Shown: one piece after another, positions 9,773 through 31,262 of the stretch
Position numbering within the stretch: position 1 is the first letter of the stretch
Layout: every line of letters starts with the position of its first letter
From: Promethearchaeota archaeon
Lineage (GTDB): Archaea; Asgardarchaeota; Thorarchaeia; Thorarchaeales; Thorarchaeaceae
Assembly (NCBI GenBank): GCA_014728035.1
Contig: WJMJ01000120.1
Location: forward strand, 1-34,650
Length of the DNA stretch: 34,650 nt
Direction: 5' to 3'
Translations under genes and position numbers: made by a program
Notes under the pieces: generated by a model
Seen by the model: only the letters and a program-made list of their open reading frames with translations
The model's database searches: none
What the model was told of the DNA's origin: nothing

Positions 9773-10690
9773 ATGAAAATACTTGTATTAGGTGGCACCG
9801 GATTTCTCGGTTCTCGAATAGTTGATAGATTGATTAACTTGAATCATACAGTTTCTGTGATTACGCGAAATGAGGATAATATTGTCAAACTTCAGGAAAA
9901 AGGAGTTCAAGGTTATGTCGGAGATCTGATGAATCCAGTTTTTATCAAAGAAATACCCAATCATGATTTTGTAGTAAATGTTGCAATGCCGCTAGAATTC
10001 GGTAGAATATCCAAAAAGAAACTGGATAAGATGAGAAAAAGAACTACCAAGTTTGTATCTACCGCATTAATGGCTGGTCGCCAATTTGATTGTCCTACAG
10101 TTCTGACTCTTGGAACCAGTTTCAAAACCGAAGGAAATGAAGTTGCTGATGAGAGTTGGCCTCTAGTAAGAGAAGGACTCGCTGCTGTTGGAGATGAGGC
10201 TGATGAAATAATTTTAGATGCTGTTAATCAGGGACAACCGATTATCAGAATGTATCCTGGACAGATTTACGGCCCAGGTGGTCAAATGAAGAAGATGTAT
10301 GATATGATGATGTCAGGTAAATTTGGTCTGATAGGTGATGGTGAAAATTACATCCCAAGAATACATGTAGAAGACTGTGCAGAAGCATTTGTTTTGGCAA
10401 TTGAGAAAAATGCAGTAGGAGAGAAATACATCATAGCAGATGATACACCTGTTACTATGAAGGATTTCACATATTACATGGCTGAGCTTGCAGGCAAAGA
10501 AAAAGTACGAAAGATTCCCAAACTTTTAGCACGACTCATAATGGGAAAAGCATTGGTAAAAACAATGGAGATGAATTGCATTGTTACAAATGAGAAAGCG
10601 AAAAGAGAACTTGGTTGGTCTCTTCGCTATCCTTCATATAAAGAAGGTCTCAAGGTCACCATAGCTGAATTGGACAAATCAGGTGGCTAA
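9773..10690 (+). CDS. NAD-dependent epimerase/dehydratase (extended SDR)
   Basis: GGTGFLG Rossmann motif, IYGPG, IHVEDCA, KAKRELGW. Confidence 0.9.
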   Translation: MKILVLGGTGFLGSRIVDRLINLNHTVSVITRNEDNIVKLQEKGVQGYVGDLMNPVFIKEIPNHDFVVNVAMPLEFGRISKKKLDKMRKRTTKFVSTALMAGRQFDCPTVLTLGTSFKTEGNEVADESWPLVREGLAAVGDEADEIILDAVNQGQPIIRMYPGQIYGPGGQMKKMYDMMMSGKFGLIGDGENYIPRIHVEDCAEAFVLAIEKNAVGEKYIIADDTPVTMKDFTYYMAELAGKEKVRKIPKLLARLIMGKALVKTMEMNCIVTNEKAKRELGWSLRYPSYKEGLKVTIAELDKSGG

Positions 10691-11644
10691 TTCATCAATA
10701 AGTGAGAGAATCCATTTGTAAAGTGGTTTCCTATTCTTGTACGCATACTCGTAAGGTGTTGTCACAACATCTCCTGCTACTTCACCTAACAACACACCAT
10801 GAATACCTTTCATAATTGATTCAACAGCATGTACACCAAGTCGGGTTGCTAACAAACGATCTTGTCTAGTTGGGCTCCCTCCGCGTTGAATGTAACCTAG
10901 TACCGAGACCCTACACTTCTCATCAACCAATTTTGATAGTTTCTCACCAACGGTAGCTGCATCTCCAGCCTCATCACCTTCAGCAACTATGATGATTGAA
11001 CTCTCTTTTCCAAGGTCTCTTCCCTTTATGATTTTTGACGCAATAGCTTCCAAATCTGTTTTAGTTTCCGGGAGAAGTATGGCAGTAGCCCCACAGCCTA
11101 ATCCTACATGAGCAGCAATCGCTCCAGCATGCCGTCCCATTACCTCAATGAGAAATACACGAGCGAATGACTCTGCAGTATCTCTAATCTTATCAATCGC
11201 ATCAAGAGCGTTGTTTACCGCGGTATCAAACCCTATTGAGAAATCTGTTCCATACAAGTCGTTATCTATAGTCCCAGGTAATCCAATTGTCATACCTTCC
11301 CAATGAGTTTCCAGCCATTCGAGCCCCCGCATAGTACCATCTCCTCCAATTGCTACAAGTGCATCTACTTCCAATTTTTTGAGGACTGATACAGCTTGAT
11401 TTACTCCTTCTTCAGTTTTGAAATGTTCAGATCTGCCAGTTTTCAGGCAAGTACCTCCCCTGTGAATTATTTTTGCAACAGACCTGGCATCCATAGGATT
11501 GTATTTCTCTTCAATGATTCCTTGGAATCCACCATGAAATCCGATAATTTCTAAACCTCGATGAGTTCCAACTCTGACAATCGCTCTGATAGCCGCATTC
11601 ATTCCTGGGCTATCGCCACCCGATGTGATGATACCTACCTTCAT
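10679..11644 (-). CDS. pfkA: ATP-dependent 6-phosphofructokinase (bacterial type)
   Basis: TSGGDSPGMNAAIR, IGGDGT, PGTIDND, EVMGRHAG, LGYIQRGG. Start placed at MKVG, about 31 nt below a TTAATA box. Confidence 0.95.
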   Translation of the reverse strand: MKVGIITSGGDSPGMNAAIRAIVRVGTHRGLEIIGFHGGFQGIIEEKYNPMDARSVAKIIHRGGTCLKTGRSEHFKTEEGVNQAVSVLKKLEVDALVAIGGDGTMRGLEWLETHWEGMTIGLPGTIDNDLYGTDFSIGFDTAVNNALDAIDKIRDTAESFARVFLIEVMGRHAGAIAAHVGLGCGATAILLPETKTDLEAIASKIIKGRDLGKESSIIIVAEGDEAGDAATVGEKLSKLVDEKCRVSVLGYIQRGGSPTRQDRLLATRLGVHAVESIMKGIHGVLLGEVAGDVVTTPYEYAYKNRKPLYKWILSLIDELAT

Positions 11645-27540: not shown

Positions 27541-29226
27541 TTGATAATGACGGATTTCATTGAAGTTGCTAAACTATTAGATGGGATACGCGTAGAGAGC
27601 AGTAGAAAAAAGAAGGTCACATCAATTGCATCATTTCTTCGAAAGTTAGAACCAATGTCTATCTATCCAGCAACACTCTTTGTGTCAGGTCGTGTATTTT
27701 CTGAAACCGATTCACGCAATCTCAACTTATCATGGAAAGGAATCAGTAAGGCAATGGAAGAAGCTTTTGGTATAAAACCTGATGATTTAGCTAAGTATTA
27801 TGACGGAGATGCAGGTGAAGCAGTAGAGAACTATCTGAAACAAGATGATCTTATTGTTCAATCTACTCTTTTCTCAGAGCCACTTACTATCCGGTCTGTA
27901 TTTAGAGACCTCAGTCGATTAGCGTCATACTCAGGTAAAGGTTCGAAAAAAGCACGCGAAGGTATCGTCCAGAATATGATTAGTGAAGCTTCACCTCAAG
28001 AAGCGAAGTATATTGTATCTCTTCTTCTTGGTGACTTGCGTACCGGAGTTTCAGAGGGACTCGTGTTAGAATGTATTTCAGAGGCATTTGAAATCGACTC
28101 CCATCTTATAAGACGGGCTCTTGGATTCTTAGGTGACATAGGACGCGTCGCTGAGATAGCTGCTGTGGATGGACAAAGTGGAATTGAAGAGGTCAAGATT
28201 GAAATCTTTACTCCTATCAAACCTATGCTTGCTGTACCGATTGACAATCCTGAAGAACTTCTTGAATCCGAAGATGGCCCATTCAGTTTTGAACCAAAAT
28301 ATGATGGAGCTCGAGTTCAAATCCATATCAATAAAAATAGTTGTCGAATATTCTCTCGCCGTCTCCTTGAGGTAACAGATAGTTTACCAGATATAGTTCA
28401 TCTTGTTCGATCTGTATTTCTGAAAGAAGATGCAATTTTTGATGGGGAGGTCATTGCTGTAAATGAGAATGGTGTCCCGTATCCCTTCCAAGTTGTGATG
28501 CGTCGATTTGGCCGAACAAAAGGAACCGAAGAAGCCAGTAGAAGAGTAAAACTTCAACTCCGAGTATTCGATATCCTTTACCTTAACAGTGAGATGCTTG
28601 TTGATGATGCATATTTCAAACGAAGAGTCAATCTGATAGACTCTTTGCCAGAGGAATATGTCACACCATCGAAAATGATGAAGAATATTGATAGTATCCA
28701 AGAAATGTTTTCTACCAGCAAGAAACAAGGTCACGAGGGCTTAATGATAAAGAAGATCAACTCTCCTTATCAACTTGGCAAACGTGGTAGATATTGGTTC
28801 AAACTCAAGCACAATCTTGAAACCCTTGACTTGGTAATTGTTGCAGCTGAATGGGGACATGGTAGAAGAAATGATTGGTTGTCTGATTACCATCTTGCAG
28901 TCTATGATTCCGAGAATGGAGATTATGTAATGATAGGAAAGACATTCAAGGGTCTCACTGATGCTGAATTTGAACAGATGACTCGACGTCTTCTTTCACT
29001 TGAAACAAGCAGGTCGAAAGGGATAGTGACTGTAAAACCAGAGGTCGTTGTAGAAGTTCTAGCTTCTGAAATTCAAGATAGTCCTACCTATGAATCAGGT
29101 ATGGCTCTTCGGTTTGCAAGGATAGTACATATTCGCGATGATAAAGCACCTAGTGATGCTACCACACTTGAGGATCTTCATTCAATTTACTCTTCTCAAT
29201 TCAAGTACAAGGCTAAGTTAGAATGA
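27541..29226 (+). CDS. lig: ATP-dependent DNA ligase
   Basis: KPMLA, EPKYDGARVQIH (adenylated Lys), FDGEV, FDIL, EGLMIK, WFKLK, LRFAR. Start may be the ATG at 27547. Confidence 0.96.
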   Translation: MIMTDFIEVAKLLDGIRVESSRKKKVTSIASFLRKLEPMSIYPATLFVSGRVFSETDSRNLNLSWKGISKAMEEAFGIKPDDLAKYYDGDAGEAVENYLKQDDLIVQSTLFSEPLTIRSVFRDLSRLASYSGKGSKKAREGIVQNMISEASPQEAKYIVSLLLGDLRTGVSEGLVLECISEAFEIDSHLIRRALGFLGDIGRVAEIAAVDGQSGIEEVKIEIFTPIKPMLAVPIDNPEELLESEDGPFSFEPKYDGARVQIHINKNSCRIFSRRLLEVTDSLPDIVHLVRSVFLKEDAIFDGEVIAVNENGVPYPFQVVMRRFGRTKGTEEASRRVKLQLRVFDILYLNSEMLVDDAYFKRRVNLIDSLPEEYVTPSKMMKNIDSIQEMFSTSKKQGHEGLMIKKINSPYQLGKRGRYWFKLKHNLETLDLVIVAAEWGHGRRNDWLSDYHLAVYDSENGDYVMIGKTFKGLTDAEFEQMTRRLLSLETSRSKGIVTVKPEVVVEVLASEIQDSPTYESGMALRFARIVHIRDDKAPSDATTLEDLHSIYSSQFKYKAKLE

Positions 29227-29606: not shown

Positions 29607-30266
29607 GTGCTTTCTGTGAGTAGAGAGAGATTTGCAAATGATATCGATGAGTTCATCAAAAGACTTACAGATGCATCGGATCAGTCCTACAAGAAAAAAC
29701 TCACTCCAGTAAGAAATCGACTTTTGAAGCTAAAGGAAAGAAATCTTGTAAGAATTAATCATAGCATACTAGAGATATTGTGTGCATGGCATCTGATCAA
29801 ATTAAATTATGATGTTGATGTGGAAAAAAGGATAGGAGATAGCATTCTCATTGCGGATATCATTGCTAGAAATGAAGTGGAAAGTAATTCACTACTTGTA
29901 GAAGTTGAAACTGGTTTTGTACCCCCATCAGCAGCAATGAATCCAAGACATTACAGAATGGTGCGAATTGCATCAAAATTGGCACGATACAGTGGACATT
30001 ACCCAAATTTTGCTTTAGCTACCCCTGTATATCATCTCCTCCAAGTACCCTATACATTGCTCAAGGAACCAGGTTTACGAAGGAAAGGTGAATTATTTCA
30101 ACTCAAAAGACTGTGCGACCAATATTATCAAGATCCACCAATAACCTACGAGGACCTAAAAAAAGCCGAGCTTGATAGAATATTTCTTATGAATGTCGAT
30201 GACCTTGAAGTAACATCTCTCTCTTCAGATTTGTACCTTGAGTTACTTTTGGACCTAGGTGTTTGA
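29607..30266 (+). CDS. Conserved archaeal hypothetical protein, PD-(D/E)XK nuclease-like fold
   Basis: HSILE...VDVEK..IADIIA...LVEVETG resembles restriction-endonuclease-like motifs I-III (E, D, ExE variant). Confidence 0.6.
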   Translation: MLSVSRERFANDIDEFIKRLTDASDQSYKKKLTPVRNRLLKLKERNLVRINHSILEILCAWHLIKLNYDVDVEKRIGDSILIADIIARNEVESNSLLVEVETGFVPPSAAMNPRHYRMVRIASKLARYSGHYPNFALATPVYHLLQVPYTLLKEPGLRRKGELFQLKRLCDQYYQDPPITYEDLKKAELDRIFLMNVDDLEVTSLSSDLYLELLLDLGV

Positions 30267-30291
30267 AATTCACCATTGTTACGTATATACC

Positions 30292-30306
30292 CCAAAACTT
30301 AATTGA
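30292..30306 (+). promoter_or_regulatory. BRE/TATA-like promoter for the downstream structured RNA
   Basis: CCAAAACTTAATTGA. TTAATT begins 29 nt before the RNA's closing stem, similar to the TTAATA-to-start spacing at pfkA (31 nt). Confidence 0.45.
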
Positions 30307-30327
30307 TTATGTGAGTATACTATATTT

Positions 30328-30558
30328 AGCCACTTGAGAAGTACGCTAACAATAGACGTACTGAGTCTGTTCATGTTGGACTAGACCATCAACTCGGTTA
30401 GCAGATGGTCCCGTATCAAAGACAGCATGGATGACTGGCCGACGAAAAGAGGTGTCAAATGATTGCTGCAGTTTCGATAGGCAGCAACTGTGTTAGAACG
30501 ACACCAATATTCGAGACAGATAGAGTCGGAGTCTATTGAGGCTTAGGCTCAAGTGGCT
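30328..30558 (+). ncRNA. Unassigned structured RNA (~231 nt, three-way junction)
   Basis: Seven nested helices read by eye: AGCCACTTGAG/CTCAAGTGGCT, CAATAGAC/GTCTATTG, a 14-bp G-U-containing helix 30364-30378/30423-30436, GACCATC/GATGGTC, CCGAC/GTCGG, GGTGTC/GACACC and TTGCTGC/GCAGCAA. Upstream TATA-like box and downstream T-rich tract. Confidence 0.65.
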
Positions 30559-30635
30559 TCTTTATTTTCGAACAAACTTTGATTAAGTCAGATTAACTTT
30601 TTATCCCGATAGAATTTTATTAGACTTGATGTCAA

Positions 30636-31262
30636 TTGGATTTAGATTTTGAAATAAGAGAGCTGGGACTCACTTCTAAGATAGCTAGATTGATAGATTC
30701 TGAACATACTAAAATCCTCAATAAGATATTGGATTTTACAGTAAATGAGCAAAATGGTCAATTTAGACGTGATTGCCAGTGGCGATATCATGACATGATA
30801 GGTATCGAGTTAGGAACGAAGGGGCATCCACTTTCAACAACAAGAGGAGAGCAAGTATCTGTAAAGAAGGTTGAAGAAATTCACATTGGACAGCCTCATT
30901 TAAACAGGACCTACACAATTTTGGATGGATCTTATCCAGCTTTTCTAAATGATGTTTTACATAACCATCTTGGTGATTCAAGTTGGCTTCTCCCATCAAA
31001 AAGACTTGGACGAAATACGGTCTATGAAGGACAATTAGCAGCGATTCTTATTCTGATAAATCATGCCTGGCGAGATATCTATGAATTCACAATCACAGCC
31101 AAAGACCTTAGTTGGATGGTGGATTATAATCACCATCACTCAGTTTTGATCTATGGGGATGAAGTGGCTGCAAGAGCAAAATTTCTCAGTGAAGAGAGAA
31201 GAAAATGGCGAGATAAAATACTCAGTCTAAGCTATTATCCAAAAAGTACGAAAGGAACATAA
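30636..31262 (+). CDS. Hypothetical protein
   Basis: 208-aa ORF; C-terminal DIYEF..DLSWMVDYNHH..IYG motif, family not confidently named. Confidence 0.6.
   Translation: MDLDFEIRELGLTSKIARLIDSEHTKILNKILDFTVNEQNGQFRRDCQWRYHDMIGIELGTKGHPLSTTRGEQVSVKKVEEIHIGQPHLNRTYTILDGSYPAFLNDVLHNHLGDSSWLLPSKRLGRNTVYEGQLAAILILINHAWRDIYEFTITAKDLSWMVDYNHHHSVLIYGDEVAARAKFLSEERRKWRDKILSLSYYPKSTKGT

Follow-up and report, generated by a model that had tools for sequence, protein, structure and literature searches.

The window analysed here is the stretch of 34,650 nucleotides (nt) covering positions 1 to 34,650 of contig WJMJ01000120.1 (forward strand; assembly GCA_014728035.1), from a Promethearchaeota archaeon of the class Thorarchaeia. 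Judging from its sequence and those of its relatives, we are confident that positions 30328-30558 of the + strand constitute a free-standing, independently transcribed gene for a structured RNA of ~235 nt. The gene lies beside an open reading frame (ORF) at 29607-30266 (+), whose product of 219 amino acids (aa) is modelled with a PD-(D/E)xK, or restriction-endonuclease-like, fold. We propose, with a probability of roughly 0.6, that the RNA serves as subunit or regulator in a nuclease-like ribonucleoprotein (RNP) formed with this protein, which would bind it through a short conserved element that we call the clamp. The proposal draws on the linkage of the two genes across orientations and phyla, on a co-occurrence that holds in one direction, and on the conservation of the clamp. 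An earlier reading of the window, the original prediction, had described an apparently undescribed archaeal non-coding RNA (ncRNA) or RNP scaffold with a wholly nested, Y-shaped fold. The ncRNA half of that reading is supported by a null Rfam result, by covariation and by a single copy in the genome; the RNP half is still inferred, and what strengthens it is that the link to the PD-(D/E)xK-fold gene is conserved.

The RNA gene and its boundaries

The RNA was found where the original prediction had placed it, in the gap between the ORF at 29607-30266 and the next one at 30636-31262, where the longest ORF on either strand is at most 31 aa. The segment is richer in G+C than its flanks (0.43 versus 0.33-0.37), as had been noted. 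Positions 30320-30570 of the + strand fold with a minimum free energy of -79.1 kcal/mol (z -3.66), and none of 200 shuffled sequences folded as well. The reverse strand is equally stable (z -4.41), so folding energy alone cannot assign the strand. Two covariance models were used, R1 built from eight copies and the broader R2 built from 54. The match in the window spans 30322-30572, scoring 225 bits (E 6e-58) with R1 and 167 bits with R2, and the models and covariation together delimit a structured body at 30328-30558 (+), from the 5' strand to the 3' strand of the closing helix P1. Because models of this type match the window on the + strand only, G-U pairs are common, and a TATA-like box upstream and a T-run after P1 accompany all copies, the + strand chosen in the original prediction is correct.

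Both transcription signals that had been pointed out are present. A promoter resembling a transcription factor B recognition element and TATA box, CCCCAAAA then CTTAATTGA, is read from the sequence at 30292-30309 (+), with its centre about 25-26 nt before P1, and relatives have equivalent A/T boxes at the same distance. Directly after P1, a T-rich tract at 30558-30568 (+) is likely an archaeal terminator and is kept in all copies. A scan for sigma-70 promoters and intrinsic terminators is uninformative for an archaeon. By BLAST and the two covariance models, the 4.3-Mb assembly holds one copy of the RNA.

A covarying fold with two pseudoknots

The structure was assessed in an alignment of 54 copies containing 70 pairs in 12 helices. 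Standard pairs fill 90.8% of cells, versus 27-41% after a shift of the 3' partners by 1-3 columns, in an alignment that was fitted to the nested helices and favours them, pseudoknot 1 lying outside that model. Compensatory changes occur at 59 of the 70 pairs, and none of 500 shuffles reached the observed values; the covariation looked for in homologues is thus abundant. G-U pairs are frequent throughout the family alignment.

P1 joins 30328-30338 to 30548-30558 and is 97.9% paired, with compensatory changes at seven of its 11 pairs. P2 joins 30350-30356 to 30532-30538 and is 93.1% paired, with such changes at all seven pairs. Both had been proposed, and both fit the family consensus and covary, P2 in the register given here. 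Arm A, a fold-back arm at 30357-30444 (family helices 4-7), is made up of the helices 30357-59/30442-44, 30364-66/30434-36, 30371-78/30423-30, 30380-81/30413-14 and 30384-89/30405-10; the second, third and fifth of these are the consensus helices, all covarying, that bear out the arm as originally drawn. Its A-rich bulge at 30415-30422 contains positions G, A, A, A and A that are at least 91% conserved. The apical loop of the arm, CGGUU at 30395-30399, pairs with GGCCG at 30437-30441, just 3' of arm A at its junction with arm B. This pseudoknot 1 is 99.6% paired, covaries at five of five pairs and gives the strongest covarying signal in an all-against-all scan of the alignment. It folds arm A back on itself across the conserved A-rich bulge.

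Arm B (30451-30505) contains 30451-56/30500-05 and 30463-69/30481-87, corresponding to family helices 9-11, which covary; its coordinates in the window copy, and those of pseudoknot 2, were set by hand, as the automatic alignment is mis-registered there. Pseudoknot 2 connects the apical loop of arm B, UUUCGAU at about 30472-30478, with GUCGGAG at 30525-30531 in the 3' single strand. Across the family it is 87.9% paired, with a loop consensus of GUUCGAU against AUCGAAC, and the central pair (alignment columns 164/223) is GC in 28 copies, AU in 12 and GU in 11. A 3-bp hairpin proposed by the first fold, 30515-17/30525-27, competes with pseudoknot 2 and is a possible alternative to it.

The two upper helices of arm B had been correctly seen as complementary in the original prediction. 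A third, 30439-43/30525-29, did not hold up: of its five pairs, one is standard in no more than 1 of 53 relatives and another in no more than 3, and it lacks support because those bases belong to the two pseudoknots. With two pseudoknots, both missed in the earlier reading, the fold is not purely nested or Y-shaped. Two local motifs were considered and rejected. A T-loop in arm B was set aside, the conserved GUUCGAU loop pairing instead with AUCGAAC in pseudoknot 2. A K-turn in arm A or the clamp was set aside as well; the combination of 3-nt bulge and tandem G-A pairs that such a motif needs is not matched there, and the G-A pairs are lost in copies from genomes without the protein.

Distribution of the RNA

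BLAST recovered full-length relatives at 62-72% identity within the same family. R1 gave 64 matches in 48 of the 86 genomes of this Thorarchaeota family, at one or two per genome and in 10 of 16 genera, and R2 returned the same 48 genomes. With R1, the RNA was not found in the 97% complete genome of the sister species. Among 151 sampled genomes of the phylum, matches outside the family came only from a second family, f12 (3 of 19 genomes).

At Bathyarchaeia loci, R1 also matches elements of 125-190 nt that are divergent from the protein gene and directly upstream of it, with E values from 4e-10 to 5e-3. Those that align best retain P1, the clamp, P2 and arm A; arm B is missing from them, with 84 model positions deleted. 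The RNA family is old, inherited with many losses in Thorarchaeota and present in a shorter form in Bathyarchaeia.

Three loci depart from the usual arrangement. In genome G012, two tandem RNA copies (C28:8986-9233 and 10596-10842; locus L029) stand 1.36 kb apart, and no homologue of the protein was found in that genome. At G095:C1:1049956-1050041 (L122:3805-3890), only the arm-A part matches (model positions 36-122), beside an intact protein gene; the copy has either decayed or been strongly remodelled. At L125, on a contig labelled Nitrososphaerota, the protein groups in the Bathyarchaeota clade and the adjacent RNA has a clamp of the Thorarchaeota/Bathyarchaeia type, which may reflect a wrong bin label or a joint transfer of the two genes.

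Comparison with known RNA families

We are confident that the family is absent from Rfam 15, and it was not found in the searchable literature. At the gathering score, no Rfam 15 family matched the window; at E<=10 the sole match was to snR79 on the opposite strand, at 16 bits against a cut-off of 55 (E 5.5), which is at chance level. ARAGORN found no transfer RNA (tRNA) or transfer-messenger RNA (tmRNA) genes in the window. A protein-free (type-2) thorarchaeal copy gave nothing credible in Rfam at either threshold, and the RNA had no match in plasmid records. No description of it was found in the literature on Thorarchaeota and Asgard ncRNAs, Nitrosopumilus small RNAs or Bathyarchaeota RNA motifs.

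Specific identities were rejected in turn. The RNase P RNA model RF00373 had no match in the window at the gathering score or at E<=10, and the genuine gene is elsewhere, full-length at 159.7 bits on another contig (G000:C151:41695-42028). The archaeal signal recognition particle (SRP) RNA model RF01857 likewise had no match in the window, and a full-length SRP RNA lies at G000:C25:14422-14731, its 89.5 bits just below the 96.5-bit cut-off. For a box C/D small RNA there was only the sub-threshold snR79 match on the opposite strand, and for a Y RNA there was no Rfam Y_RNA match in the window. The original prediction had likewise noted a lack of the hallmarks of tRNA, SRP RNA, RNase P RNA and C/D boxes, and had proposed an Rfam search in which a significant family match would count against it; none was returned. 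We attach almost no weight to the RNA being a highly diverged universal RNA (RNase P/MRP-like, SRP or tRNA-like). The 3' clamp string GGCUUA and the GAGGAG of the 5' side may be likened to CR-V and CR-I of RNase P RNA. Against this stand the null searches, the genuine RNase P and SRP RNAs on other contigs, and a helix order that differs from P1-P2-P3-P4.

A mobile origin was considered in two forms, the remnant of a miniature inverted-repeat transposable element (MITE) and a guide or scaffold RNA of a transposon nuclease, comparable to an omega RNA. P1 does resemble a terminal inverted repeat, and the RNA adjoins a gene with a nuclease fold. The search for dispersed copies, however, found one copy in this genome and one or two per relative, and with a single copy the RNA is not a MITE; compensatory changes preserve its pairing as RNA. 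The ends are locked in P1, leaving no room for a variable extension that could act as a guide, and the fold of the partner is PD-(D/E)xK and not RuvC. The protein family is absent from viral contigs and the RNA from plasmid records, and inheritance is vertical. Either form of mobile origin is accordingly very hard to credit.

The proposed partner protein

The partner gene (29607-30266, +) encodes a 219-aa protein that has no Pfam, NCBIfam, PADLOC defence-model or PDB-sequence match. Its AlphaFold (AF2) model has a predicted local distance difference test score (pLDDT) of 94, and through the alpha/beta core of that model it is assigned to the PD-(D/E)xK superfamily. The best fold match is to 3dnx (VIA-align; Z 10.4 over 105 residues, root-mean-square deviation 2.4), followed by XisH (2okf, Z 10.0) and AF1548 (Z 8.9); NucS, Can2, Hjc and CdiA-CT rank lower. 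The ESM Atlas holds full-length structural twins with a template-modelling (TM) score of 0.92. Invariant positions in the family are H52, E73, D84, E99, E101, a TGFVPP stretch, R120, K124 and R127. D84, E99 and E101 are candidates for the catalytic D...(D/E)xK motif, but position 101 is E and not K, and an invariant lysine, K124, lies on the next helix.

Members of the protein family occur in Nitrososphaerota, Bathyarchaeia, Aigarchaeota/Caldarchaeales, Brockarchaeota and Thorarchaeota, with at least 563 genome hits, which are 38-48% identical. Clustering at 50% identity gives 231 clusters. The family is present in 27 of 86 Thorarchaeota genomes and in 49 of 81 sampled genomes of the Nitrosopumilaceae family. 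The protein tree follows taxonomy, with support of 97/93 for Thorarchaeota, 95/88 for Bathyarchaeia and 100/99 for the ammonia oxidisers, which argues that the pairing is ancient and not recently spread. No member was found on viral contigs. Together, the tree and this absence point to an old cellular gene that has been lost many times, and not to a roaming selfish module.

Linkage of the two genes

Across the best-scoring RNA loci, no neighbour is conserved other than the homologues of this ORF, and the protein gene adjoins the RNA in 22 of the 33 such loci checked. Seen from the protein, 25 Thorarchaeota genes were followed: the RNA lies within ~230 nt of 21, at 2.0 kb from one and on another contig for two (both in one genus), the last being undetermined. 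The pair is also found in the second family, f12. In Thorarchaeota, 24 genomes carry an intact protein gene, and the RNA is present in every one of them. The reverse does not hold, since many RNA copies, mainly from two genera, occur in genomes that lack the protein.

The two genes occur co-oriented, divergent and convergent, which rules out an element of the 3' untranslated region. The orientations also bear on a cis-acting leader or riboswitch for the downstream gene at 30636-31262, with P1 and the U-tract serving as a terminator switch. Such an arrangement would account for the T-run directly after P1, and the size and pseudoknots of the RNA are like those of large riboswitch aptamers. Yet the RNA is divergent or convergent with its neighbours in several loci, the downstream genes vary between loci where only the nuclease-like gene is conserved, and there is no alternative expression platform, P1 being 10-11 bp long and always formed. 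A role of this kind is highly improbable. The downstream ORF itself (208 aa, +) matches DUF6756 only below threshold, at 23.6 bits where the cut-off is 27. Other genomes do not conserve it beside the RNA, and so it is probably unrelated to the module; hhalign found no relation between it and the protein family.

The clamp and the protein-free copies

The clamp is a short helix/loop between P1 and P2. Its 5' strand, AAGUACGCUAA at 30339-30349 (+), and its 3' strand, AGGCUUAGG at 30539-30547 (+), pair at 30342-43/30544-45 and 30345-47/30540-42, and we propose it as the protein-binding site. The motif reads [AG]AG[UC][AU]NGCU on the 5' side and GGCUU[AU]G[AG] on the 3' side, and the 5' strand is invariant in eight close relatives. 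All 23 protein-adjacent copies carry it, as do both copies in genus g7, where the protein gene is on another contig. In genomes without the protein, the 5' half is present in 2 of 24 copies and the 3' half in 5 of 24, with all helices retained. In Bathyarchaeia the clamp is retained though the rest of the RNA is greatly changed. In genus g7 a 195-aa ORF precedes the RNA, and hhalign found it unrelated to the protein family.

The protein-free copies retain the body without the clamp; the body would therefore have a further role for which the protein is not needed. These copies sit in vertically conserved metabolic neighbourhoods. Those of genera g3 and g6 (L047-L064; for example L055:2900-3260) have a near-identical promoter block across genera, TGTGCA..ATCTCAG.GTTTATTA, then ~22 nt, then TAGTTAAGCC, and a conserved 3' tail, TTTCCTGCGTTTTGG, also across genera. 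The block and tail suggest that a transcription factor binds there and that the 3' extension may be functional.

A stand-alone functional RNA was weighed as well, whether a ribozyme, a binder of a ligand or macromolecule, or a regulator in trans, with the nuclease-like gene a frequent neighbour and no physical partnership. The compact double-pseudoknot fold and conserved A-rich bulges of this RNA are typical of self-contained tertiary folds, and 24 of the 53 full-length copies lie in protein-free genomes with all helices and the promoter kept. However, the adjacency survives three orientations and a change of family and of phylum, every Thorarchaeota genome with an intact protein has the RNA, and the clamp is kept with the protein and mostly lost elsewhere. 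We consider a stand-alone RNA unlikely, though it deserves serious attention.

Other archaeal lineages

In Nitrososphaerales and Nitrosocaldus, the gene of this protein family is directly followed by a different RNA of ~235 nt that has a TATA box of its own. This Thaum-type RNA (L066:3702-3936, L068:3720-3954 and nine other loci; alignment A7) is predicted to form a four-way junction with two tetraloop-capped arms, and 38 of its 63 predicted pairs show compensatory changes. Rfam gave nothing credible for it at the gathering score or at E<=10. The corresponding model, R3, also matches Aigarchaeota loci beside the protein, where the strand is ambiguous. In Calditenuaceae genomes, R1, R2 and R3 detected neither RNA type.

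A type III-like toxin-antitoxin or addiction module would have the RNA directly neutralise a toxic nuclease, with orphan RNAs as anti-addiction antidotes. This reading is suggested by the two-gene combination of nuclease and RNA, by the patchy presence of the protein in both Thorarchaeota and Nitrosopumilaceae, by the existence of orphan RNAs and by the CdiA-CT toxin among the fold matches. The RNA, though, is a single non-repetitive fold (there is no tandem repeat in 30250-30650), present at one copy per genome, served by a promoter of its own and variably oriented. Nothing in the protein tree, which agrees with taxonomy, hints at rampant transfer; viral contigs, plasmids and PADLOC models gave no match, and Nitrosopumilaceae carry the protein with no RNA detected. 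We regard an addiction module as improbable.

Genes of nucleic-acid metabolism recur near the pair: a DNA ligase in the window and at one Bathyarchaeia locus, PCNA at three Aigarchaeota loci, and DEAD and SNF2 helicases in Nitrososphaerota. These neighbours mostly reflect lineage-level synteny and are weak evidence of function. The ATP-dependent DNA ligase of the window (27541-29226, +) is a second, divergent ligase of the genome and not an ortholog; it is 37% identical to the ligase at G000:C65:21983-23458 and only 32-35% identical to the ligases of sister genomes. A DNA ligase also flanks the RNA-protein pair in the Bathyarchaeota locus L088, and the ligase may be part of an accessory repair cassette or a coincidence. 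Synteny with the sister genome G001 could not be compared at the DNA level, the sequences being too diverged. In Nitrosopumilus and Nitrosarchaeum (L093:3700-3835, L106, L111, L124 and L135), the conserved block after the protein homologue is a 44-aa Cys/His-rich, zinc-ribbon-like ORF, which an SNF2 helicase gene follows.

A proposed ribonucleoprotein

In the arrangement that we propose, the RNA would be a dedicated subunit of an RNP with the adjacent PD-(D/E)xK-fold protein, which would recognise the clamp adjoining P1. The work would fall to the compact body with its pseudoknots: it would regulate the nuclease-like protein, or the protein would deliver or handle it. The setting would probably be nucleic-acid repair or turnover.

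Several observations weigh against this proposal. About half of the RNA-bearing Thorarchaeota genomes are without the protein, and the copies in them keep a strongly conserved promoter. The correlation between clamp and protein is confounded by relatedness, because the protein-adjacent copies form a sequence subfamily. The Thorarchaeota/Bathyarchaeia-type and Thaum/Aigarchaeota-type RNAs do not cross-match, and homology between them is undetectable. R1, R2 and R3 detect neither type in the Nitrosopumilus and Nitrosarchaeum genomes, which carry the protein; the block downstream of the protein in Nitrosopumilaceae is the small Cys/His-rich ORF and not an RNA. Finally, given its ligase, PCNA and helicase neighbours, the protein could act on DNA only.

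More speculatively, the pair in Thorarchaeota, Bathyarchaeia, Nitrososphaerales/Nitrosocaldus and Aigarchaeota might be one ancient archaeal RNP, in which a PD-(D/E)xK-fold protein needs a dedicated, compact RNA of ~160-250 nt to be regulated, to be targeted or to handle its substrate. Such RNA-dependent nuclease machinery, acting in nucleic-acid repair or turnover, would form a new class, and its RNA would evolve too fast for the forms of different lineages to align. We put this wider reading forward tentatively, with more doubt than confidence.

Large RNAs with pseudoknotted cores that are proven by covariation are rare, and those that are understood have often turned out to be ribozymes, riboswitches or RNP cores. 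The RNA comes with a testable partner, a conserved nuclease-fold family that has no Pfam entry and extends across four archaeal lineages. Experiments are possible, as some of the lineages bearing the partner include cultivable ammonia oxidisers. If the physical pairing is true, archaea would have an RNP of a new kind, both in the closest lineage to eukaryotes and in the globally abundant Thaumarchaeota, and two unannotated gene families would gain a shared function to look for.

Comparison with known systems

Several known systems share features with this pair. RNase P RNA has, like it, a closing P1, long-range pairings, conserved A-rich joints and the strings GGCUUA and GAGGA; the RF00373 model failed here, however, and helix order and conserved regions differ. 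The omega RNAs of TnpB and IscB are also structured RNAs of 150-300 nt beside a nuclease gene. Unlike them, the present RNA has no guide segment, no insertion-sequence ends, a single copy, its own promoter in variable orientation, and a partner of PD-(D/E)xK rather than RuvC/HNH type. In type III toxin-antitoxin systems (ToxIN, CptIN and TenpIN) a nuclease gene again adjoins an RNA gene, and here too the RNA would bind the protein. Here, though, the RNA is non-repetitive, is not fixed upstream in one operon and persists without the protein, and the fold and vertical inheritance of the protein differ.

With the orphan large RNAs OLE, raiA, ROOL, GOLLD and HEARO and the archaeal Hgc RNAs, this RNA has in common a complex covarying fold, its own transcription unit and an unassigned biochemical role; OLE among them has dedicated protein partners encoded nearby. 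It differs in matching none of them in Rfam 15, in being restricted to Thorarchaeota and Bathyarchaeia, and in having a nuclease-fold partner that has no Pfam family.

The closest working analogy appears to be Y RNA with Ro60/Rsr, a resemblance in logic and not in membership. There too, as in bacterial YrlA/Yrn beside rsr, the ncRNA gene is generally known to adjoin the gene of its partner. The ends are locked in a long closing stem, and a conserved internal-loop/helix element nearby is the likely binding site. The rest of the RNA is fast-evolving and modular, the distribution is patchy, and neighbours include genes of nucleic-acid repair. The conserved neighbour in the present case is not a TROVE protein (Ro60/Rsr), having a PD-(D/E)xK fold and no Pfam match, the rest of the genome not having been searched for TROVE. 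The partner thus has a PD-(D/E)xK fold in place of the TROVE/vWA ring, and the RNA is more than twice as long as a Y RNA and doubly pseudoknotted.

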